A DNA stretch of 64,000 bases from Escherichia phage vB_Eco_mar004NP2, in sequence record OR896837.1, one strand, 5' to 3'. Positions within the stretch are counted from its first letter, which is position 1. Each line of letters opens with the position of its first letter. The notes below the pieces were generated by a model, which saw only the letters and a program-made list of their open reading frames with translations, did no database searches and was not told the DNA's origin. Shown here in pieces: positions 4,241-63,290 of the stretch. A program made the position numbers and the translations under genes.

Positions 4241-4747
4241 ATGGAAATAAGTAATACTCCAATTATTTTTCTAGACATTGATGGGGTGCTCAATTCGAGC
4301 ATCTCCCATCATCATGCACCTGATAATGAAAAGATTTTCTTTGGAAGTGACTGGGTTTTCAAACCGCTTCTCAAGGCTTTTCAGGATTTTATTCGTCCTT
4401 CTCCGATAATGATTGTTGGAGTATCCTCATGGTTCTCTGTTAGGAATGAGATGGAGAACGTTCAGATTATGACCGGATTAGGTCTTATCGATCGTTTTCT
4501 TGGTACAACTGATTTTACTGGGGGTGGGCTATCTAGAGGTAATTCTGTTCTCCGTTTCGTTGAAAAGCATAAGCTCAAACATTGGTGTGTGCTTGATGAT
4601 GCTGGTGCTACGATGTATCAGTATCCAACGGTTATAGTCAACGGTAGGACTGGGATAAATCTTCAAGATTTAAAAGCTGTTAGCTATATGCTAGAATTTA
4701 GCCCAGATATTGAAATGTGTAAATCCTTACAACAATTTAAGGTGTAA
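4241..4747 (+). CDS. HAD-superfamily hydrolase-like protein (possible nucleotidase/phosphatase)
   Basis: N-terminal FLDIDGVLN (DxDGxL HAD motif I); SD aggaac upstream. Confidence 0.55.
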   Translation: MEISNTPIIFLDIDGVLNSSISHHHAPDNEKIFFGSDWVFKPLLKAFQDFIRPSPIMIVGVSSWFSVRNEMENVQIMTGLGLIDRFLGTTDFTGGGLSRGNSVLRFVEKHKLKHWCVLDDAGATMYQYPTVIVNGRTGINLQDLKAVSYMLEFSPDIEMCKSLQQFKV

Positions 4748-4749
4748 AT

Positions 4750-5178
4750 ATGTTCAATAATGTATTCTCTAAAGAAGCTAACCCAATTTTGGTTAACTTT
4801 TGGCGTACTCTCCCAGCTAGCCTGTATAATGAGGCTATTAACTCTTTGAAAATATGGTGTGAGAATAACGAAATCTCCTTTGCTTTTAAGGATGATATTG
4901 ATGAGGCCCCCTGTATTGGTTTAATTGTGCAGGTAGAGGATGGTCTTGAAGAGATTGTGGGCTGGAAAGAGTTAGACGAAATGGGCTTAGTTTTTGCGTT
5001 AAACTATAAGCTGTTTATGCCTGCTAAGCATCGCCTAGTTGTTAACTATAAAACTAGTGAATCTCCTGGTTTTCAGGTTAATGAACGTTATGGTTGGTCT
5101 TACTCACCGGAAGAAGTGAATGAGGGGATTCAGAAACTTCGCCGTTTCGGGTATATGATCCCAGGTTTAACTGCTTAA
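4750..5178 (+). CDS. Hypothetical protein, paralog A of a tandem pair
   Basis: ORF track; shares a C-terminal block with the next ORF (EL-x-EMGLV-x-LN-x-LF-P...GY-x-IPGL). Confidence 0.55.
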   Translation: MFNNVFSKEANPILVNFWRTLPASLYNEAINSLKIWCENNEISFAFKDDIDEAPCIGLIVQVEDGLEEIVGWKELDEMGLVFALNYKLFMPAKHRLVVNYKTSESPGFQVNERYGWSYSPEEVNEGIQKLRRFGYMIPGLTA

Positions 5179-5187
5179 GGAGGCAGA

Positions 5188-5580
5188 ATGGAACAAGTAT
5201 ATTGGCGTCAGATTGATCCTAGTTTGGTGAAGCGTGCTGAGAAGCTGCTACAACGTTGGTTGGGGGTAAAGCAAGCCTCCTTCACTTTTCCAGAGCAGCA
5301 AATAGATGATCCCTGCACTGGCGTTTTCCTGTCTGGATATGCCGGGGAATGGGAGATGGACTGGAATGAATTGTCCTCTATGGGTTTAATTGTTTCCCTA
5401 AATTTCTCTTTGTTCCATCCACGTGGTTTTGCCATATGTCGTGTGCCTGATGACGGTTGTTCGCCCCATCTTTTACAGGTGAAAGATGATATTTGGGAGT
5501 ACACTCCAGATATTCTCAAAGAAGCTAAAGAACAATTAAACCGTGTTGGGATTTATGTTCCAGGCCTAAATGATGAATGA
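5188..5580 (+). CDS. Hypothetical protein, paralog B of a tandem pair
   Basis: ORF track; strong SD taaggagg; paralogous to 4750-5178. Confidence 0.55.
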   Translation: MEQVYWRQIDPSLVKRAEKLLQRWLGVKQASFTFPEQQIDDPCTGVFLSGYAGEWEMDWNELSSMGLIVSLNFSLFHPRGFAICRVPDDGCSPHLLQVKDDIWEYTPDILKEAKEQLNRVGIYVPGLNDE

Positions 5581-5671
5581 TTTTTACTAGCTGAACTCTG
5601 ATTACCGAGTCATTTTGGCTCGGTTTTCTCTGTACTCAAAGACACTGATAGCACCTTTGGGAAAAATTTAC

Positions 5672-5700
5672 TTGCACGGTGCTCAAAATCTTGATATAAT
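5672..5700 (+). promoter_or_regulatory. sigma70-type promoter reading into a ~0.45 kb region without a convincing ORF
   Basis: TTGCAC 5672-5677, 17-nt spacer, TATAAT 5695-5700, followed by the conserved leader-like atttatattgaattgagaga. Confidence 0.45.
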
Positions 5701-6199
5701 ATTTATATTGAATTGAGAGACATTAGTAAAAATTGATTTTGCTAATTTTTCTTGTTTACAATCCGCGATACGGAACAGTTAGGCTGCCCCATTAAGGGTT
5801 GTTTTAACTGTTACGTGTTAGTTTTTAAACAAATAGTTAATAGAATACTTAGCGATCTGCGTCCCGTAGGAACCCTGGTAAGGCCTCGAAGCAACCTAGA
5901 TAGAGGTGGTTGTGAAGTGAGACGGGAGGAGTGAAAAACTCCGAGACGTGATTCTGTAAGTTATATTGCATCTAGTATGAGCTAGTATATGAAGCATTAG
6001 GTGAGCAAATCTGGCTTAGCGGCCATCCTCAAGGATTTGTGCGGTATAGCAAAGCAGCAGCGCAGCGTGAAAGTGGAAGTTGCCACCCCACTTCAGTATT
6101 TGCGATTAATTTGTTGAGAAATTGACAGTAACAGTTGTTCTATTCTTTCTGAATAGTCCTAAAGAAAACTTATTTCATTTCCAACACAGGAGTATTGTT

Positions 6200-8989
6200 G
6201 TGTTTTCAATCCTACAAGGTCATGCAGGATTTCATCGCGATTTAGCCACAGGCAATTGGCGAGAAGTTAAAGCAGAAGATTATCTTTTTGCTAAAAGATT
6301 TTCCTCAAAGCATCCTGAAGGTAAACCAGCTTCAATGCCCTTCAAGTTTGATGTAATTGACGAAGTTGATCCTCAAACCCTAGTAGAAATGCTTCCTCTT
6401 ATGAGACGTTTAACGTCTGACCCTCATATCGTTGCGGTACGAGGTCGATGTCTTGCACCTAAAAATAATGTGCGGCGTAAGAATGGCAACTTTAATGTAT
6501 CTAACCCAAGTCATATAATTGCAATGGATGTGGATGGTATTGTAGATACAGGTGGTTGTAACAAGTTTGATCTTGTTGGCATGGCTCGACATATTATTAG
6601 AATGTTAAATAGTATTAGTGAGGATATGTTTCCTCTTGATGCAGGGTTTATCGCTCATGCATCGTCTTCGGCTGGGCTAAAACCAGGTATCCGAATGCAC
6701 TTAATACTAGAATCTAATGTTAAAGTAACTCAGGGTCAAATCAAATTCTTATTTACATCTATCAACGAAAGTAGTAGACAAAAGTATGGCTTTGATATTG
6801 CCGACTTAGCTTATTACTCTTCCGTACAGCTCCATTATTTTGCAGATCCGTTATTTACCGATGGTATAGTAGATCCGTTTAAAGAGGAGGGTGCTTCACG
6901 TCTGGTATTTGTTAAGGGTTCTAAAGTAAATTTACCCAATAATCTGGTTGACTATGAAACAACTAGAGGTGAGTTTAAAGAAGAGTTCTACTCTTTACTA
7001 GACCAAATTAAGGGTAAAAAAGCTGCCTCTGATAAAGTAGAAGAAACCATCAGCGAACTAGAAGAAGCTGAGGATGGAGTGTATCTACGTATTATTCCTA
7101 AACTCTATCACAGGGCTTTAGAGGATGGTGTTGATTTTGCATGGCTAGAAAAAGAAATCCGTCCAGCCTTATCAGAATATATTGCAACTAAAGATAATAG
7201 TCGTAATATTCAAGACTACTTTAATAATGGTCGTAAACAGGCTCTAAAAGCATTTGTTAATAATTCTAAACGTTATATACCGGATGTTTTAAAAGGTATT
7301 CCACTCAAAAAGCTAGAAACTAACTCTTTAGAGACTGATAACTTCTTGAAATTAAATACTGTGCCACCAGAAGGTTATATGACTTTTGTAAAAGCGAGTC
7401 TAGGTACAGGTAAAACTACAGCGGTTGTGCGTTGGTTAGATTCAGGAGTTATTAAAGGTAATTTCTTAGCAATTACCAATACTCGAGCACTGGTATCTTC
7501 CAATGCTAAGAAATTTAGTGCAGGACAATATGATAAGTCTGTAGATATGCTTAATTTTAAGCGTGGTGCTATTGACCGTATGTCCACAACTATTCACTCT
7601 TTGCATAAGTTCAAGAGTTTTATTGGTCAAATTGATGCAATCTTTATCGATGAATGTGATGCAGTAATGAACGACCTATTATTCGCCCCGGTTGTTAAAC
7701 AACGTCGTGAATGTATTCAGGTTCTTCGGGATATTCTTGCAACTGCAAAAATCATTATATTATCAGATGGTGATATTAGTGCAGAAACAATTGAAGCATA
7801 TGGTTCTTTGATCGAGTTTGATAAACCGGTTGCATTTTATAATCATCACCGTAAAATGCTGTCAAAAGCTCATGCTTATGAGTTTCCTGATGAATCCAGT
7901 ATTTGGGTTGCACTTCAGACTTCTCTAGAGATGGGTGAGAAATCTATTCTGGTATCTGATTGTGGCCCTGATGAGCTGAATGAGAAGGGTATGGCATTAC
8001 GTCGTAATACGGGTGCGTTAGTTAAGGAAATCCACTCAAATTCTACGTCTGATGTGGATATTAGACGTATTCTGGATTACACAACTAATGAGCTGATTGA
8101 TCAACAAATTGATTGCTTATTATGTAGTCCATCCGTAACGAGTGGAGTTGACTTCAACTATTTTGATAACGTATTCGTTATTACTAGAACCAGTAACCAA
8201 GCGCCAAACATGCGTTTTCAAGCAATCAGGCGCGACCGTGGTGCTCAGAATATCTATTATTTTATTGATAAATCTACGAGTGGATTCTCTGCAGGTTCTG
8301 AACAATATAATATTGATGAGGGCTGGCTGGAGTTAGCACAGCAATTATATGCACGTCGTAGAGAGCTGGAATCTAGAAATTATACTAGTACTTTACGTTA
8401 TTACTTGCTTGATCAGGGTGCAACTATTGATATTTTCAGCGAAAGCTGGGGAACTATTGAAGGTGCAGGGAAAGAATATATGGAAGAGCGAATCAAAGCT
8501 ATTCTACATTCAACTCCTGATTATTGTGCTCCACGTCATGCGGATGCGTATGAAGCTAAACTACTTCTTGTTCGCTATTATCATCTTGAGTCTATTAAAG
8601 ATGTAACAGTTGAGCATGTTGAACAATATATCAAGGATAAACCTAATGATCGAGCGGCATTCTTCCATAAAATGCACGAGATGTTTTGGGAAGATATTAA
8701 GAAGTGTTCAAACGTCACTATCAAACCATTCATAGAAGCTCTGAAAGGTAAGAAGAAGGACTTCTTCCTTAAAACAGGTCAGAGTGCTAACCCAAAATAT
8801 GCTAGAATGTATCTTGGTATGATGGGTATTGGTAAGGATATGAACACTGAAAATATTGTAGACTGGTACAGAACCTATTGTAAAATCGAGTGTATGCCAA
8901 TTCCTTATAAGTTTATGACTGATGAGGAGAAACATATGCATGATGAAGCAATGGCAGAGCTAGGTGCTAGAAATGACAGTGAAGAATAA
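6200..8989 (+). CDS. Large SF2 helicase-like protein (possibly replication-origin-binding / primase-helicase-like)
   Basis: ORF track 6122-8989 (TTG); start placed at GTG 6200 after aggag with 7-nt spacing (uncertain); Walker A SLGTGKTT, Walker B FIDECD; N-terminal IIAMDVDG acidic motif. Confidence 0.65.
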   Translation: MFSILQGHAGFHRDLATGNWREVKAEDYLFAKRFSSKHPEGKPASMPFKFDVIDEVDPQTLVEMLPLMRRLTSDPHIVAVRGRCLAPKNNVRRKNGNFNVSNPSHIIAMDVDGIVDTGGCNKFDLVGMARHIIRMLNSISEDMFPLDAGFIAHASSSAGLKPGIRMHLILESNVKVTQGQIKFLFTSINESSRQKYGFDIADLAYYSSVQLHYFADPLFTDGIVDPFKEEGASRLVFVKGSKVNLPNNLVDYETTRGEFKEEFYSLLDQIKGKKAASDKVEETISELEEAEDGVYLRIIPKLYHRALEDGVDFAWLEKEIRPALSEYIATKDNSRNIQDYFNNGRKQALKAFVNNSKRYIPDVLKGIPLKKLETNSLETDNFLKLNTVPPEGYMTFVKASLGTGKTTAVVRWLDSGVIKGNFLAITNTRALVSSNAKKFSAGQYDKSVDMLNFKRGAIDRMSTTIHSLHKFKSFIGQIDAIFIDECDAVMNDLLFAPVVKQRRECIQVLRDILATAKIIILSDGDISAETIEAYGSLIEFDKPVAFYNHHRKMLSKAHAYEFPDESSIWVALQTSLEMGEKSILVSDCGPDELNEKGMALRRNTGALVKEIHSNSTSDVDIRRILDYTTNELIDQQIDCLLCSPSVTSGVDFNYFDNVFVITRTSNQAPNMRFQAIRRDRGAQNIYYFIDKSTSGFSAGSEQYNIDEGWLELAQQLYARRRELESRNYTSTLRYYLLDQGATIDIFSESWGTIEGAGKEYMEERIKAILHSTPDYCAPRHADAYEAKLLLVRYYHLESIKDVTVEHVEQYIKDKPNDRAAFFHKMHEMFWEDIKKCSNVTIKPFIEALKGKKKDFFLKTGQSANPKYARMYLGMMGIGKDMNTENIVDWYRTYCKIECMPIPYKFMTDEEKHMHDEAMAELGARNDSEE

Positions 8990-9206
8990 AAAATGGGAAA
9001 CAAGGAAGTTCCCAGTAAAAGAGCGTAAAGTTCCTGTTTACGATACTTCGGAAAAGCTATGTAGGGTGGTTCCTGCTAGATTAGCTGGCATCCCTAACAT
9101 ATCCGAGTGGTTACTTAAACAACGGAAAACAAACGTGTCTCTTCGCATCGGCTTTGAATTAGATAAAGTCTATGCTGAACTTGCTTCTTTGCTCAAGGAA
9201 TCGTAA
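8973..9206 (+). CDS. Hypothetical small protein
   Basis: ORF track 8964-9206; ATG 8973 overlaps the end of the upstream gene; weak support. Confidence 0.3.
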   Translation: MTVKNKKWETRKFPVKERKVPVYDTSEKLCRVVPARLAGIPNISEWLLKQRKTNVSLRIGFELDKVYAELASLLKES

Positions 9207-9274: not shown

Positions 9275-9979
9275 ATGGCTGGTTCTCGTAGAAAGAAACA
9301 TATCCATGAAATCCCGGATGAAGTCTTTAAAAAGGTTATAGAGCATCTGGAGAACGGTGGTACTAAGAAAGCAGCATGTGAAATGCTCGGCGTATCATCT
9401 AATCCAACTATGGAAAGAATGATTGAAGAATGGCAAGACCGCCAGATTCAAGTTGCCGAAATGAAGAAAAAGAAACGTGGCACACTCATTGAAGGCATTG
9501 AGTTAGCTAACGTTATTGAGCAGTATTTATCTGGTGATTCTTTTGAAGAAATTGCCGATCGTAATTACCGCTCTGTAGCAATGGTTAAATCTGTTCTGGA
9601 ACGATATGGTGCTCTACTTCGTTTGAACGATATTGTAGATCCATTGAATCCTCCAATTATTCCTGATGATGCTGTAGCAGAAGAATTTGCAGTTGGTGAG
9701 CTTGTTTGGGTTCCTGGATACCAGTGTATCGGTGAAATCAAAAAAGCAATGGATAATCCTGTTGGTTGTTACCGTGTATGGCTTCTATCGGAAGGCAAAC
9801 AACAGAACGTCCATTATATGAATTACGAGTTGGCCTCTGTTAAGCATCTAGAAAAGTTAGGGGTTGACGTAAAATCTCTAGGGTACAAGTGGACTCGTGA
9901 AGAAATTATTACGTTGATTAACGAAGCTGTTAAGGCCGCCCTGAAGCTTGATAAAGAAAAAGGAAAACGCCGTGAGTAA
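9275..9979 (+). CDS. Putative DNA-binding protein (N-terminal HTH-like)
   Basis: ORF track; strong SD gagaggag; N-terminal GGTKKAACEMLGVSSNPTMERMIEEW resembles an HTH. Confidence 0.55.
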   Translation: MAGSRRKKHIHEIPDEVFKKVIEHLENGGTKKAACEMLGVSSNPTMERMIEEWQDRQIQVAEMKKKKRGTLIEGIELANVIEQYLSGDSFEEIADRNYRSVAMVKSVLERYGALLRLNDIVDPLNPPIIPDDAVAEEFAVGELVWVPGYQCIGEIKKAMDNPVGCYRVWLLSEGKQQNVHYMNYELASVKHLEKLGVDVKSLGYKWTREEIITLINEAVKAALKLDKEKGKRRE

Positions 9980-11136: not shown

Positions 11137-11445
11137 ATGAGCGAACAGGTAAATCAAAACTATGAAGGACACGTTGATGACCAGTCCATCATACTCTGGG
11201 AGAAGGAGGGAGAACAAGTAAGATTAACAGTATCTGAATTTCGTGGGAATCTATACATGGGTATTCGTTACTGGCTTCTTGATATTAATGATGAATGGTT
11301 TCCAACGAAATCTGGCTTCTCTTTTCCTTACACCCTAGAAACAACATCGCAGCTTTTCTATGCGTTTACACAGATTCTTAGCGAATCTGAGGTTTTACAT
11401 GAAGTACAGAAACGAGCTGAAGAACTCAAAGCCAAGAATGCCTAG
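11137..11445 (+). CDS. Hypothetical protein (102 aa)
   Basis: ORF track; weak SD. Confidence 0.45.
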   Translation: MSEQVNQNYEGHVDDQSIILWEKEGEQVRLTVSEFRGNLYMGIRYWLLDINDEWFPTKSGFSFPYTLETTSQLFYAFTQILSESEVLHEVQKRAEELKAKNA

Positions 11446-17138: not shown

Positions 17139-19706
17139 TTGAAAATCGCAGTAGTTGATAAAGCTCTAAATAACACTCGTTATGATAAACATTTCCAGCT
17201 ATACGGCGAGGAAGTTGATGTATTCCATATGTGTAACGAGAAGTTATCCGGTCGTTTGCTCAAAAAGCATATTACTATCGGGACTCCGGAAAACCCATTT
17301 GACCCGAATGATTATGATTTTGTTATACTGGTAGGTGCCGAGCCTTTCCTGTACTTTGCAGGTAAGAAAGGCATTGGTGACTATACTGGTAAACGTGTAG
17401 AGTATAATGGATATGCTAACTGGATTGCGAGTATCAGCCCCGCCCAGTTACACTTTAAGCCTGAAATGAAACCAGTTTTCGATGCAACAGTAGAGAATAT
17501 CCACGATATTATCAATGGTCGTGAGAAGATTGCAAAAGCTGGTGATTACCGTCCTATTACTGACCCTGACGAGGCGGAAGAATATATCAAGATGGTGTAT
17601 AATATGGTTATCGGACCTGTCGCATTCGACTCCGAAACCTCAGCACTATACTGTCGAGATGGTTATCTGCTTGGTGTTTCTATGTCTCACCAAGAGTATC
17701 AGGGTGTATATATCGATTCTGATTGTCTCACAGAGGTTGCAGTATATTATCTCCAGAAAATTCTGGATAGTGAAAACCACACTATTGTTTTTCACAACTT
17801 GAAGTTTGATATGCACTTTTATAAGTACCATCTGGGACTTACTTTTGATAAAGCACATAAAGAACGCAGGCTCCATGATACCATGTTGCAGCATTATGTT
17901 CTAGATGAGCGTCGTGGTACTCATGGCTTGAAATCTCTAGCAATGAAGTATACCGATATGGGCGACTATGACTTTGAACTAGATAAGTTCAAGGAGGATT
18001 ACTGCAAAGCACATAAAATCAAGAAAGAAGATTTCACCTATGATTTAATTCCGTTTGATATTATGTGGCCTTACGCTGCAAAAGATACCGATGCCACCAT
18101 ACGTTTGCACAACTTCTTCTTATCAAAAATTGAGAAGAATGAAAAACTTTGCAGTCTGTATTATGATGTCCTAATGCCTGGTTGTGTATTTCTCCAGCGT
18201 GTTGAGGATCGTGGTGTACCTATTTCTATTGATCGTTTAAAAGAAGCTCAGTACCAGTTAACCCATAATCTGAATAAGGCTCGTGAGAAACTGTATACTT
18301 ATCCAGAAGTCGTTCAGCTAGAAAAAGACCAGAACGAGGCGTTTAACCCAAACTCTGTTAAGCAACTGCGTGTTCTTCTGTTTGATTATGTTGGCTTAAC
18401 TCCAACAGGTAAATTGACGGATACTGGGGCAGACTCTACAGATGCAGAAGCTCTGAATGAACTGGCTACGCAGCATCCAATTGCTAAGACTCTACTAGAG
18501 ATTCGTAAGCTGACTAAGCTGATCTCTACTTATGTTGAGAAGATTCTTCTGAGTATTGATGCAGATGGTTGCATTCGTACTGGTTTCCATGAACATATGA
18601 CTACTTCTGGTCGTCTGAGTTCTTCTGGTAAACTGAACCTGCAACAGTTACCTCGTGATGAATCTATTATCAAGGGTTGTGTAGTAGCTCCTCCCGGGTA
18701 TCGTGTAATTGCATGGGACTTAACAACTGCGGAAGTTTATTATGCTGCTGTTCTATCTGGTGATAGAAATATGCAACAAGTATTTATCAACATGAGAAAT
18801 GAACCTGATAAATACCCTGACTTCCACTCTAACATCGCACACATGGTATTTAAACTCCAATGCGAGCCTCGTGATGTTAAAAAGTTATTCCCAGCTCTGC
18901 GTCAGGCTGCTAAAGCAATCACCTTTGGTATTCTGTATGGTTCTGGCCCGGCTAAAGTAGCTCATTCTGTTAACGAAGCTCTTCTGGAACAGGCTGCTAA
19001 GACAGGTGAACCGTTTGTAGAGTGTACTGTTGCGGATGCGAAGGACTATATCGAAACTTACTTCGGTCAGTTCCCGCAGCTTAAGCGTTGGATTGATAAG
19101 TGTCACGACCAGATCAAGAATCATGGATTTATCTATAGTCACTTTGGTCGTAAACGTCGTCTGCATAATATCCATTCCGAAGACCGTGGTGTTCAGGGTG
19201 AAGAAATCCGTTCTGGATTTAACGCAATCATTCAGTCTGCTTCTTCCGACAGTCTCCTTTTAGGTGCTGTAGATGCAGATAATGAGATCATTTCTCTTGG
19301 CCTAGAACAAGAGATGAAGATTGTTATGCTAGTTCATGACTCCGTAGTTGCTATTGTTCGTGAAGACTTGATCGACCAATACAATGAAATCCTGATTCGT
19401 AATATTCAGAAAGACCGTGGTATTAGTATTCCTGGCTGTCCGATTGGTATTGATTCAGATTCTGAAGCAGGAGGTTCTCGTGACTATTCTTGTGGTAAGA
19501 TGAAGAAACAGCACCCATCAATCGCTTGTATTGATGATGATGAATATACTCGTTATGTCAAGGGTGTATTACTTGATGCAGAGTTCGAGTATAAGAAACT
19601 AGCTGCAATGGATAAAGAGCATCCAGATCATAGCAAGTACAAGGATGATAAGTTTATTGCTATATGTAAAGATTTGGATAACGTGAGAAGGATTCTCGGT
19701 GCTTAA
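17139..19706 (+). CDS. Family A DNA polymerase with 3'-5' exonuclease domain (T5-type)
   Basis: 855 aa; exo motif FDSETSAL, pol motifs KAITFGILYGSG and VHDSVV; TTG start after SD gaggag; N-terminus and length match my recollection of T5 DNA polymerase. Confidence 0.95.
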   Translation: MKIAVVDKALNNTRYDKHFQLYGEEVDVFHMCNEKLSGRLLKKHITIGTPENPFDPNDYDFVILVGAEPFLYFAGKKGIGDYTGKRVEYNGYANWIASISPAQLHFKPEMKPVFDATVENIHDIINGREKIAKAGDYRPITDPDEAEEYIKMVYNMVIGPVAFDSETSALYCRDGYLLGVSMSHQEYQGVYIDSDCLTEVAVYYLQKILDSENHTIVFHNLKFDMHFYKYHLGLTFDKAHKERRLHDTMLQHYVLDERRGTHGLKSLAMKYTDMGDYDFELDKFKEDYCKAHKIKKEDFTYDLIPFDIMWPYAAKDTDATIRLHNFFLSKIEKNEKLCSLYYDVLMPGCVFLQRVEDRGVPISIDRLKEAQYQLTHNLNKAREKLYTYPEVVQLEKDQNEAFNPNSVKQLRVLLFDYVGLTPTGKLTDTGADSTDAEALNELATQHPIAKTLLEIRKLTKLISTYVEKILLSIDADGCIRTGFHEHMTTSGRLSSSGKLNLQQLPRDESIIKGCVVAPPGYRVIAWDLTTAEVYYAAVLSGDRNMQQVFINMRNEPDKYPDFHSNIAHMVFKLQCEPRDVKKLFPALRQAAKAITFGILYGSGPAKVAHSVNEALLEQAAKTGEPFVECTVADAKDYIETYFGQFPQLKRWIDKCHDQIKNHGFIYSHFGRKRRLHNIHSEDRGVQGEEIRSGFNAIIQSASSDSLLLGAVDADNEIISLGLEQEMKIVMLVHDSVVAIVREDLIDQYNEILIRNIQKDRGISIPGCPIGIDSDSEAGGSRDYSCGKMKKQHPSIACIDDDEYTRYVKGVLLDAEFEYKKLAAMDKEHPDHSKYKDDKFIAICKDLDNVRRILGA

Positions 19707-56264: not shown

Positions 56265-56336
56265 GTACGCGTGGGTGTGTCCAGTGGCCCCCCAGATGAG
56301 AATGAGTCTCATTACCGCCCGGTACTTAGCAGGCTA

Positions 56337-60466: not shown

Positions 60467-60718
60467 TTACGCTACAGCTTCCCATTTTTCGTTACGCTGT
60501 ACAACCTTTACAACGTCGCCGGATTTAACGCGAACGCTAAAAACGGTTTTGCCGTTGTTACTACGTTCATTTTCAGCGTATACCGCGTCGATTGTATCAA
60601 ACGGCATAAGCGCCGCACCTTTAATACGTTCGGCTTTTCCGGTTAGTTCATCCGTTTTAGTAACGAAAGGAATAAAAACGGATTGACCAATTTTAGGCGC
60701 GGTAATAACGTTTTGCAT
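60467..60718 (-). CDS. Hypothetical protein (83 aa)
   Basis: ORF track; conserved leader upstream. Confidence 0.45.
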   Translation of the reverse strand: MQNVITAPKIGQSVFIPFVTKTDELTGKAERIKGAALMPFDTIDAVYAENERSNNGKTVFSVRVKSGDVVKVVQRNEKWEAVA

Positions 60719-60754
60719 AGTATAAACTCCAAGTTATTTAGGGGATTGTTCCGC

Positions 60755-60781
60755 ATTACCTGCTAGAAAGTAGCAGGTAAT
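60755..60781. repeat. Perfect 11-bp-arm palindrome with 5-nt centre
   Basis: attacctgcta-gaaag-tagcaggtaat, about 35 nt upstream of the 60718 start codon. Confidence 0.8.
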
Positions 60782-60917
60782 AAGCAACAATCCGCTCACC
60801 GCTATAATCAATTTAAGGAACTCCACGCAGGCTGCTATATCCCAGTTAGGGGGCAGGATGATTTATGGGGAATCACCTAACCGTCAAATTGTATCAAGTT
60901 ATCGCTCTCATCGAACT

Positions 60918-61206
60918 GGGTACATCTTAAAGCCTATCGGCTAGGGTGTCAAACTGTTTTTTGCAGTTTTTTATGATTTTCTTTCAGGTCGATCATAATA
61001 TTACGCCAGATCATTTCTAAACCCTGCTGGCGGCCTTTCTTGTACTGAGCAAATCGGTATTTTACGGATTGCTGGGCTATTGTCAACAATTTTTTAGTAG
61101 TACCATCTAATTTTTTAGCTGGTTTACCAGTGATCAATAAAGTTTGTTTCATATCTGCGATTCCTTATAATATAAGTTTACCGCCGATAGACTTTAAGAT
61201 GTACCC
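60918..61206. repeat. 24-bp inverted repeat pair (23/24 match) bracketing a small basic-protein gene
   Basis: gggtacatcttaaagcctatcggc (60918-60941) versus reverse complement of gccgatagactttaagatgtaccc (61183-61206). Confidence 0.85.
60949..61152 (-). CDS. Small basic protein (67 aa, Lys-rich)
   Basis: ORF track; 16 Lys/Arg versus 4 Asp/Glu by my count; SD aagga 9 nt upstream; enclosed by the inverted repeats. Confidence 0.45.
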   Translation of the reverse strand: MKQTLLITGKPAKKLDGTTKKLLTIAQQSVKYRFAQYKKGRQQGLEMIWRNIMIDLKENHKKLQKTV

Positions 61207-61575
61207 AATTTTTAAAGAGCGCGGCGGTAAACTTCCCGCCGTGTAGTTCGTCATTGCCGCCCTACGAGATAAATAATAGCAAATAGTAAAAATGGCGCAA
61301 CCTTATTTTTGTAAAGAAACGTAAAGACAAAATGCCACCGGACACCGTGCGGCGACCTGGGCGCGGCGCACTAAAATTAAAGGAAACGGGCGCGCGAATA
61401 CCATAAAACCCAGCAGGTTGGCAAGTAATTTTTTCATTTATATTTGCCTTGCCCTACTTGACAAAAACTAAAAAGCTCGTGGTAGCGATAAACGAGGGTA
61501 GGCAATGCAATGGCATGGCTAAAAACTTCATCGCGTTATAGGGCGTTTTAGGCGCATTCTAGCCTTGTTGATAAC

Positions 61576-62017
61576 TTATCCCCAAAAGCAAAAATGAAAT
61601 TTTCCTAGTTATCCACTTGACTTTTATTTTCCAGTGGATAACTACTTATTTTATGAAATAAATTAATTGACTTTTATTTGTTAGTATGCATCGGAAAGAT
61701 AGCAGACTAATAGTTGCTAGGATGATAATCATGCTGGTGGATTGTAATAGCCGGAACTGTTAGCAGACTATTAATCACGGAAAATCTCATTAGCCAACTA
61801 ACTATTTCATGATATATAATATACTTATAAATTAATGAGAAATAATAATTATAAGAAATCGTAACCGATAGAAATAATAACTATAAGAAACTATCGTCCT
61901 AAGTGAGAACCACTATCGTTTAAGTTATCCACAAGTTTATTAACAGCACAAAATGATTTGACACGATAGGCGACGATATAAGGACTTATCCACAGACTTA
62001 TCCACATGTTATCCTAC
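61576..62017. promoter_or_regulatory. DnaA-box cluster in a 1.1-kb non-coding region (origin / injection-stop-like region)
   Basis: TTATCCACA-type boxes at 61609-61617 (+), 61633-61641 (-, palindromic pair with 15-bp spacer), 61925-61933, 61986-61994, 61998-62006, plus weaker 61576-61584 and 62009-62017. Confidence 0.6.
61839..61890. repeat. Two 20-bp direct repeats (iteron-like)
   Basis: gaaataataattataagaaa (61839-61858) and gaaataataactataagaaa (61871-61890), 19/20 identical. Confidence 0.8.
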
Positions 62018-62298
62018 TGTATAAATATACAGGGTAAAAAGGTAGTGTTAACAACTGCAATCAATTTTAGGCGGCCTAAAACGCTTTCTAACGAGCTAAA
62101 TGCGGTGGGGTAATATTAAAGTGAAGCCTTCACCCGTCGCCCTGGTGGCTTCACCGTGTTTTGCTCTTTACTGTACCGCTGCGCGGTTAGCATAAAACTA
62201 GGCGCTAGGCAAGGAAAATAAAAAGGTAAAATAATATTTGCCTATGCTAGAAAATTGCCTTTATCATTCACTCACCGATTAACGAGGGAGGCCAACAA

Positions 62299-63060
62299 AT
62301 GAGGCTATATAAACCAGGTAACGCAACCGTCTTAAAAGGTGCGCTGCGTAACCTGCTGGACGGTAGCAGAACAACCAGCATTAAACATTTTATTAACAAG
62401 GCTGAAACTATTCACCAAAACTTTTTTGGTGATTTCGATGCCTATGATATGAATAGTTTTCTACCGTTATATAAACAAGGGGCAACGCTTGTTTTATATA
62501 ATCAAGATTATCAATTGCTCACTAGTCGAGGGCCGGATACTGATTTCATAATCGTAAAAGGTAGCACAGTAAAAGCCTATGATACTGGGGCAGGCTTAGA
62601 AGTTTTTTCAATAGAAAATTATGAAGCCAACCCCAATGATCTTTATGATATTGAAAATTTTCTTGATTCATTTTGGCGTTATTTATCAGTTGGCTGGAAT
62701 CGGTCGGATTGTGACGGGTATCGTTTCGCGGCTGTAATGGCCTTTGATGATAACGGTAATTTTTTGTTACCGTCGGAAGTGTACCCTTATGTATATGAGG
62801 GGGATATTGAAAGCGCGGGCTTTTCTTTCTGGAAGGAGGAAGATCAGCCTATTGACAACACGGAAAAACATGCTGTAAATTCTAACACTCAAAGCGTTAA
62901 CACTCAAACTACTGAAAACAAAGGAAATAATACCATGACCAAGATCGCTAATATCGTTGCCGCTAATAAATCCGCTGTTGTAAATGCTGCAAAACTGGAA
63001 GCTGGCAAAATTGCATTGACTCAAATCACGAAAGTAGCGGCTAAAAACCGCCGTTTATGA
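62299..63060 (+). CDS. Hypothetical protein (253 aa)
   Basis: ORF track; SD gggagg upstream. Confidence 0.55.
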   Translation: MRLYKPGNATVLKGALRNLLDGSRTTSIKHFINKAETIHQNFFGDFDAYDMNSFLPLYKQGATLVLYNQDYQLLTSRGPDTDFIIVKGSTVKAYDTGAGLEVFSIENYEANPNDLYDIENFLDSFWRYLSVGWNRSDCDGYRFAAVMAFDDNGNFLLPSEVYPYVYEGDIESAGFSFWKEEDQPIDNTEKHAVNSNTQSVNTQTTENKGNNTMTKIANIVAANKSAVVNAAKLEAGKIALTQITKVAAKNRRL

Positions 63061-63290
63061 TTAAAGGTTATATTGATACGCCGATTGGTCGGGTAGTTAT
63101 TGCTAACCTGCTGAGCGTAGCGGTTGACCAGTACGCCCCGAATAACCAGAAAGCGAAAGCGGTAGCAGGCGCAGCTATGGAAGCGGCAATGCTAGAAATG
63201 GTGCAAAGTTTTAACATCGCTGAAATGATTGATGAAATGGTGAAAGGTATCGATATTTCTACTTTTACCACTAGCACCGAAAGCGAGTAA
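63057..63290 (+). CDS. Hypothetical protein (77 aa)
   Basis: ORF track; ATGA overlap with upstream gene. Confidence 0.45.
   Translation: MIKGYIDTPIGRVVIANLLSVAVDQYAPNNQKAKAVAGAAMEAAMLEMVQSFNIAEMIDEMVKGIDISTFTTSTESE

Follow-up and report, generated by a model that had tools for sequence, protein, structure and literature searches.

The closest described systems are the repeat regions in the terminal repeat of phage T5 and its relatives. In the T5 record AY587007, annotated by Wang et al., the IRC-spacer-IRD of Repeat Region 2 occupies 6022-6152 with a 52-bp spacer, and the IRD'-spacer-IRC' of Repeat Region 3 occupies 9332-9462. Davison (bioRxiv 10.1101/866236) described this arrangement for 25 T5-like phages, with each repeat holding eight boxes of the DnaA or DnaA-variant type, pairs of boxes 3 bp apart and a constant spacer in Repeat Regions 2 and 3. 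The DnaA boxes of Region 3 had been reported first in 1987. According to Davison's proposal, the Region 3 copy, possibly aided by the Region 2 copy, stops the entry of the DNA via membrane-associated DnaA. In the classical model the injection pause occurs without phage protein synthesis. The phage protein A2 binds DNA and is needed for second-step transfer. A 2026 preprint (10.64898/2026.04.02.716235) reports a viable T5 mutant with a deletion from hegG to gene 017, which formed small plaques.

Position of the locus in the terminal repeat

The analysed DNA, termed the window in the following, is a stretch of 64 kb from Escherichia phage vB_Eco_mar004NP2 (OR896837.1). The 1.5 kb around the box cluster had 99.9% identity to Salmonella phage SPLA5b and matched 456 records of T5-like phages; by this similarity the window is identified as T5-like phage DNA. 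The flanking genes were homologs of dmp, A1, A2 and hdi on the minus strand and of gene 011 on the plus strand, in a gene order syntenic with BF23, SIA3lw and T5. The region represents the central non-coding stretch of a terminal repeat of about 9.8 kb, flanked by the leftward genes hdi/A2/A1/dmp on one side and by the gene-011 operon, which runs rightward, on the other. The repeat starts at about position 56280 of the window and has the receptor-binding and receptor-blocking genes to its left, thus the window shows it either as it stands at the right end or in collapsed form. Since the terminal repeat measures 9.7-9.9 kb in close relatives, its right-hand 2 kb lie beyond the end of the window.

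The hdi homolog (host division inhibitor; PHROG 4718, E 1e-38) forms the left border of the non-coding region. It had 93.6% DNA identity to T5 AY587007 4714-4917, and T5.008 is annotated at 4715-4918 in NC_005859. The right border is the gene-011 homolog. A non-coding region of 1.1 kb had been noted in the first-pass annotation; it spans 61153-62298 (1146 bp) and contains small open reading frames called by other annotators. A 44-codon open reading frame at 61303-61437 matched a PHROG of unknown function, but was rejected as a coding sequence because an 11-bp indel breaks the frame in four relatives; it was treated as non-coding. An Rfam scan of 60600-62500 yielded sub-threshold chance matches only and no known RNA family. 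The GC skew shifted only at changes of the transcription direction. The features of the region are collected in Table 1.

Table 1. Features in and beside the non-coding region, in window positions
Feature	Position	Strand	Remarks
hdi (host division inhibitor) homolog, T5.008	60949-61152	-	67-aa ORF; last gene of the leftward pre-early block
Counterpart of T5 inverted repeat B (IRB)	61527-61553	+	partner IRB' at 62074-62100
Back-to-back one-mismatch DnaA-like boxes	61566-61584		TTATCAACA, minus strand, 61566-61574; TTATCCCCA, plus strand, 61576-61584
Palindrome with two convergent TTATCCACT boxes	61606-61644		61609-61617, plus strand; 61633-61641, minus strand
Promoter-like TAGCCA-18-TATAAT	61791-61820	+	conserved among relatives
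Two AT-rich 21-bp direct repeats, AGAAATAATAAYTATAAGAAA	61838-61890	+	61838-61858 and 61870-61890
Core module, with AGTGAGAA..TTTAAG	61908-62032	+	corresponds to T5 Repeat Region 2
Core box 1, TTATCCACA	61925-61933	+	followed by 3 bp
Core box 2, TTATTAACA	61937-61945	+	
Conserved TTGACA of the core	61958-61963		
Core box 3, TTATCCACA	61986-61994	+	followed by GAC
Core box 4, TTATCCACA	61998-62006	+	followed by 2 bp
Degenerate core box 5, TTATCCTAC	62009-62017		followed by the terminal palindrome
TACTGTATAAATATACAGGG, T5 'palindrome D'	62015-62034		LexA (SOS) box form CTGT-N8-ACAG
Promoter-like TTGCCT-18-TATCAT	62238-62267	+	just 5' of the gene-011 homolog
T5.011 homolog	62299-63060	+	first gene of the rightward pre-early operon; PHROG 4263, E 2e-109

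DnaA-type boxes and the core module

Six exact copies of TTATCCAC were present in the 64-kb window, where 2.1 are expected, and five of the six were located within 61609-62005 (plus strand at 61609, 61925, 61986 and 61998; minus strand at 61634-61641). An earlier count of at least five consensus boxes thus held. The exact sequence TTATCCACA occurred three times in the whole window, each time in the cluster (61925, 61986, 61998); the expectation is about 0.013 exact sites per 400 bp. This clustering is far beyond chance. Boxes of the strict consensus TTWTNCACA were not enriched across the whole window (nine found versus eight expected); the signal is a local clustering of boxes, not a window-wide enrichment. 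Additional boxes with one or two mismatches, TTATCAACA, TTATCCCCA and TTATTAACA, had been missed before. Of the three boxes that had been read as a tandem at 12-bp spacing, two are consensus boxes 12 bp apart, but the third, TTATCCTAC, follows 11 bp further on and is degenerate, with three mismatches to TTATCCACA.

The region was mapped onto T5 by BLAST of the window against AY587007, a record with detailed repeat annotation. Window 60702-61494 matched T5 4464-5241, which is Repeat Region 1 with IRA and IRA'. Just past this match lies T5 IRB (5285-5310), which corresponds to the window sequence given in Table 1 via the IRB/IRB' pair; in the window the pair comprises 27 nt with 78% complementarity, and 62074-62101 mapped to T5 5300-5273 on the minus strand. 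Window 61902-62400 matched T5 6022-6518 with 86.4% identity over 509 nt, a segment annotated in the order IRC, spacer, IRD, IRB' and gene-011 promoter. A further match with 75% identity connected 61901-62032 with the reverse complement of T5 9332-9463, the IRD'-spacer-IRC' of Repeat Region 3. On the basis of these alignments, the core 61908-62032 is the already described IRC-spacer-IRD module of T5-like phages, and the locus as a whole is assigned to T5 Repeat Regions 1 and 2.

The core is composed of two like-oriented box pairs, with 12 bp from start to start within a pair and the pairs 61 bp apart. With T5 Repeat Region 2 it shares the position in the terminal repeat, the two pairs of DnaA-type boxes 3 bp apart, the length, the terminal palindrome and the IRB' just downstream. 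In T5, however, box 2 is lost (TTATACATT), whereas the four main boxes are intact or near-intact here, and the homing-endonuclease gene hegG splits Repeat Regions 1 and 2, which are contiguous in the window. T5 Repeat Region 3 contains the module of 125-131 bp as an inverted copy of 75-80% identity, in which the boxes occupy the same positions and the palindrome recurs. It differs in its location at the border between first-step and second-step DNA and in the subsequent repeat families of 66-67 bp and 15-31 bp, which are absent here.

Well known arrays of DnaA boxes in Escherichia coli are oriC, datA and DARS. They resemble the module in the like-oriented TTWTNCACA 9-mers 2-3 bp apart, a spacing that favours cooperative DnaA oligomers, and in the mixture of high-affinity and weaker boxes. 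In contrast to the E. coli arrays, the phage module lacks a GATC cluster and a 13-mer unwinding element, is arranged as a mirror-image pair, and shows no sign of initiation or of DnaA-ATP hydrolysis or regeneration.

A second group of boxes is located to the left of the core. The palindromic pair gttatccact-N15-agtggataac, already recognized in the first-pass annotation, was found at 61608-61642 and was also detected as 15-nt arms with 93% complementarity. A -35-like TTGACT (61617-61622) lies between the two convergent boxes. Folded as RNA, the palindrome yielded -16.4 kcal/mol (z -5.2), with a potential 12-bp hairpin followed by a U-rich tract. A conserved terminator was considered for this palindrome and rejected: T5 has a different, weaker sequence at this place, and a terminator scan gave no call. 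Of the 28 genomes scanned, 14 had the palindromic pair; 13 of these have a short spacer (718-915 bp), which lacks the hegG insertion, and one (L036) has a spacer of 1114 bp. The remaining long-spacer genomes, among them T5 with its hegG insertion, and two short-spacer genomes (L024, L039) did not have it. The exact pattern was detected in IMG/VR in T5-like contigs only, and the segment 61555-61660 was found in 121 phage records. The adjacent back-to-back pair was kept in 11 of 12 relatives without hegG insertion and is absent from T5. By this distribution, 61566-61641 is classified as an extra, lineage-specific group of four DnaA-type boxes, which as such cannot be essential to the phage family. 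In the accessible literature on T5-like phages we found no discussion of this four-box cluster.

Between the left cluster and the core, the direct repeats described before were recovered, with a length of 21 nt rather than 20. They were 95% identical and 32 bp apart from start to start; one to three copies were present among the close relatives aligned, and none in T5. The promoter-like TATAAT of the first-pass annotation is located at 61815-61820, with a weak -35 element TAGCCA 18 bp upstream, and agrees with the consensus at 10 of 12 positions. Window 61760-61834 is homologous to T5 5943-6018, and at the corresponding site the T5 RefSeq record annotates a promoter that reads in the opposite direction (5938-6012, minus), upstream of hegG. 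The promoter-like site just 5' of the gene-011 homolog corresponds to the T5 gene-011 promoter (6411-6489, plus), which is said to be experimentally characterised. Promoter-like sites were enriched in the region, with 12 found versus 4.8 expected.

The palindrome at the end of the core matched the LexA consensus TACTGTATATATATACAGTA at 17 of 20 positions. A LexA matrix built from E. coli SOS boxes ranked it first in the window, with a score of 22.6 that exceeds the median of the genuine sites. The LexA-type palindrome was present in both copies of the module and was kept in Klebsiella and Vibrio T5-like phages; the far-copy palindromes of relatives, TACTGTATAAATATACAGTA or TACTGTATATTTATACAGTA, agreed with the consensus at 19 of 20 positions. 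A consensus-level promoter match overlaps the palindrome; it is on the minus strand (62051-62024) and has its -10 element inside, at 62024-62029. LexA is not mentioned in the preprint of Davison (10.1101/866236), and a literature search, including the exact sequence string, revealed no link of LexA to T5-like phages. The palindrome may possibly bind LexA.

Conservation of the two copies

The comparison set consisted of 40 loci fetched through the A2 protein and four annotated records, in each of which both copies of the module were to be located. Thirty distinct genomes provided 60 copies for the alignment, with the window as the 61st. An inverted partner 1.8-4.2 kb to the right was present in 38 of the 44 loci, representing every distinct genome of the close T5/Tequintavirus group; among the other loci, three from Klebsiella phages had fragmentary matches and one had none. 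In SIA3lw, which is 98.7% identical, the inverted partner is located at 11148-11323 of the locus (L003). In the source phage, judged from the positions in relatives, the partner is expected about 3.5 kb to the right of the module, some 1.5 kb past the end of the window. In the relatives, the far copy is found in mirror image at the distal end of the rightward pre-early operon, where first-step DNA meets second-step DNA. Conservation is higher than in the near copy (mean pairwise identity 0.93 versus 0.87), and the palindrome of the far copy deviates less from the LexA consensus.

Across the 61 aligned copies the 125-bp core had no indels, and 47 of the 125 columns were invariant. The logo over 240 boxes read T, T, A/T, T, any, C>A, A, C, A. 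Positions 1, 2, 4, 7, 8 and 9 were nearly fixed and position 3 was A or T. Position 5 varied most, with all four bases and C in 171 of the 240 boxes, and at position 6 an A replaced the consensus C in 27% of the boxes. TTWTNCACA was fitted by 149 boxes, and 126 were exactly TTATCCACA. DnaA tolerates such variation at positions 3 and 5, but not an A at position 6.

The identity between near and far copy was 0.758 within a genome and 0.755 between genomes, and 415 of 5000 permutations reached the observed value. The two copies do not co-evolve, which argues against base pairing between them and in favour of two arrays of protein sites, each maintained independently. The core was kept in Klebsiella T5-like phages and, with an unchanged motif, in a Vibrio T5-like phage of another genus whose A2 protein is only 39% identical. 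Overall, the module was found at 1211 places in 542 phage records of GenBank and is specific to T5-like phages.

Possible roles of the module

An equivalence to the T5 injection-stop element had been suggested for this locus. The assignment stands in so far as the terminal repeat is of the T5 type and the module is a known one. The locus is not the stop region itself: counted from the left end of the repeat, the module lies at about 5.6-5.8 kb and the T5 first-step-transfer shear point at about 9.6 kb (about 7.9% of the genome). Its alignments identify it as the internal inverted twin of the candidate stop signal, the IRD'-spacer-IRC' of Repeat Region 3. The deletion primers of the 2026 preprint map to AY587007 5360-5392 and 9082-9107, so that about 5393-9081 was removed. 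From these primer positions we infer that the deletion takes out all of Repeat Region 2 and keeps Region 3, a point on which the authors do not comment. By this primer mapping, the internal copy is dispensable for plaque formation of T5 in laboratory conditions. A mutant that is viable after loss of the whole element indicates that the element is neither an essential origin nor the sole stop signal, and that any role of the internal copy would be accessory or redundant.

The position of the module, its homology, the conservation of its motifs and its fixed length are established by the alignments. With regard to function, we consider it probable that the region is the central intergenic control region of the first-step-transfer DNA and that the module binds host DnaA, with an accessory role in DNA entry. 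Each copy would most likely nucleate a short cooperative oligomer of host DnaA once the DNA enters the cell, and the palindrome would possibly be bound by LexA. Acting together, the two copies would give shape or anchorage to the first-step DNA while entry is paused and the remainder of the genome is still outside the cell; the main part would fall to the far copy and an accessory one to the internal copy. The left cluster would probably act in the same way as the core module, or on a nearby promoter.

Several other explanations have to be weighed against this DnaA-binding accessory role. Operators for a phage protein, A2 or an A1-A2 pair, with the likeness to DnaA boxes being incidental or a mimic, are a clearly less likely explanation. 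A2 has the matching properties of DNA binding and a requirement in second-step transfer, its gene is only 1.5 kb away from the module, the module is specific to T5-like phages, and the A at position 6 in 27% of the boxes breaks an invariant C of the DnaA consensus. On the other hand, DnaA is known for just this degeneracy, with W at position 3 and free choice of base at position 5, and the motif stayed unchanged in the Vibrio phage with its strongly diverged A2. Moreover, if the pause occurs without phage protein synthesis, as in the classical model, the stop signal must be read by something already present in the cell. Somewhat more doubtful is a role of the boxes and the LexA-like palindrome as ordinary operators, through which host DnaA and LexA tune or block pre-early transcription and take no part in DNA entry. 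They could serve, for example, as roadblocks at both ends of the operon or as repressor sites for the promoter-like sequences 61791-61820 and 62024-62051 (minus). DnaA-box complexes can block RNA polymerase in E. coli. The enrichment of promoter-like sites, the -35-like TTGACT between the palindromic boxes, the minus-strand -10 element inside the LexA-type palindrome and the two copies that bracket the operon in mirror symmetry are compatible with such operators. Experimentally characterised promoters are, however, located elsewhere, P-H22 and P-D/E20 to the left and one directly 5' of gene 011; the far copy lies downstream of annotated terminators, and the strict conservation of a 125-bp length exceeds the need of a simple operator.

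Three further explanations received little credence. The module itself could be the injection stop signal, or a second pause point of the entering DNA; the whole module is common to the candidate stop region, and Davison (10.1101/866236) mentions that a second first-step band of about 5.8 kb, near T5 IRC at 6022, was reported long ago. This is unlikely in view of its place in the repeat (about 5.7 kb, counted from the left end, versus about 9.6 kb for the shear point), and of the T5 mutant of the 2026 preprint, viable without the homologous element but with the far copy kept. Even less probable is a replication origin, as proposed in the first-pass annotation, that recruits host DnaA beside an AT-rich unwinding region with iteron-like repeats. 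The DnaA-box cluster does adjoin a segment of 80% A+T (61800-61900) that holds the two 21-bp direct repeats, but GATC is missing from the 1146 bp of 61153-62298, compared with about 3 per kb in the window, and the repeats are unstable in copy number among close relatives and absent from T5. The neighbours are hdi and gene 011, and no initiator gene is adjacent. T5 origins have been reported to lie close to the centre of the genome, and first-step DNA does not express replication genes (Davison, 10.1101/866236). By the primer mapping, the homologous element can be deleted from T5, and an origin does not need a duplicate of the array in inverted orientation 3.5 kb away. The description of the repeats as iteron-like was not sustained, with two copies here, one to three in close relatives and no neighbouring initiator gene; an iteron-type origin was rejected on the same grounds. 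Very improbable to the same degree is an action of the long inverted repeats by base pairing, as an RNA duplex of the ends of the rightward-operon transcript or as a DNA stem or cruciform. Two inverted 131-bp copies do flank one operon, and the upstream promoter-like site could transcribe the near copy, but the copies are only about 76% identical, the identity is no higher within than between genomes, so that compensatory changes are not indicated, and the conserved part consists of motifs that resemble protein sites.

A more elaborate form of the DnaA-binding reading is a composite landing pad, which we regard as improbable at present. In this reading, the paired boxes would carry a DnaA oligomer and the adjoining SOS-type box a LexA dimer; the module, mirror-placed around the variable pre-early operon, would tie the entry pause and its resumption, or the shut-off of pre-early transcription, to the replication and SOS state of the host, with the left cluster as a lineage-specific reinforcement. 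If this were true, the loss of LexA after the A1-driven breakdown of the host DNA could, for example, serve as a cue.

The window brings no new kind of element, it contains a known T5-type module. The comparison sharpens the picture of this module in that each copy independently keeps the DnaA-like logo, the fixed 125-bp geometry and the LexA-type palindrome. Small additions to the published description are the LexA-type box at 62015-62034 and the extra cluster at 61566-61641, which is absent from T5. For T5, the box arrays represent the main sequence clue to the stop and restart of DNA entry, a question more than 50 years old.

The LexA-type palindrome

The palindrome TACTGTATAAATATACAGGG, known in T5 as palindrome D, lies in the conserved core with paired DnaA-type boxes that corresponds to the T5 IRC-spacer-IRD element. 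To judge from its sequence it looks like a strong putative LexA/SOS box. It is kept in the near, internal copy of this module and in the inverted far copy (30 genomes), and is also present in Klebsiella and Vibrio relatives. The far-copy palindromes agree with the LexA consensus at 19 of 20 positions, and the centre switches between AAA and TTT from genome to genome. No mention of LexA was found in the accessible T5 literature. The runner-up of the LexA matrix in the window, AACTGTATACTTATCCAGAA, scored 17.5 with a matrix built from E. coli SOS boxes and overlaps a one-mismatch DnaA-like box.

Positions of the features in the window
Feature	Window position	Description
hdi inverted repeat	60903-60941, 61183-61221	39 nt, 82% complementary
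Promoter-leader, upstream copy	61440-61505	direct orientation
Five-codon ORF	61505-61522	follows the upstream copy
Additional DnaA-type boxes	61566-61641	four boxes: back-to-back pair, palindromic pair flanking TTGACT
Predicted RNA hairpin	61606-61660	DnaA-box palindrome
LexA-type palindrome	62015-62034	core 62017-62032; resembles LexA/SOS box
Promoter-leader, gene-011 copy	62234-62295	direct orientation
Gene-011 homolog, first ORF	62299-63060	253 aa
Gene-011 homolog, second ORF	63057-63290	77 aa
Second LexA-matrix match	18289-18308
DnaA-like box	18299-18307	one mismatch

Additional DnaA-type boxes and flanking repeats

The additional DnaA-type boxes were present in 14 of 28 genomes and in 121 GenBank records, mostly from short-spacer T5-like phages without the insertion of the homing-endonuclease gene hegG; T5 lacks the cluster. 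As RNA, their palindrome is predicted to form a 12-bp hairpin (-16.4 kcal/mol, z -5.2) with a U-rich tract after it, an arrangement that appears terminator-like; a terminator scan made no call at this hairpin.

On the left border, the hdi homolog is flanked by an inverted repeat whose T5 counterparts are the inverted repeats A and A'. Promoter and leader of the gene-011 homolog are partly duplicated, both copies sharing ATATTTGCCT ... CGATWAACGAGGG..GGC. Only a five-codon ORF follows the upstream copy, which resembles a decayed or decoy promoter-leader. The gene-011 homolog itself is apparently contained in two ORFs, where relatives have a single one of about 336 aa; a frameshift or premature stop could account for the split, as could an error in sequencing.

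A T5 deletion covering the element

A published, viable T5 mutant carries a hegG-017 deletion (10.64898/2026.04.02.716235). Primer mapping placed this deletion at about 5393-9081 of AY587007, homologous to the window from roughly 61650 rightward and beyond its end; on this mapping the entire IRC-spacer-IRD element is gone, a loss on which the authors do not remark.
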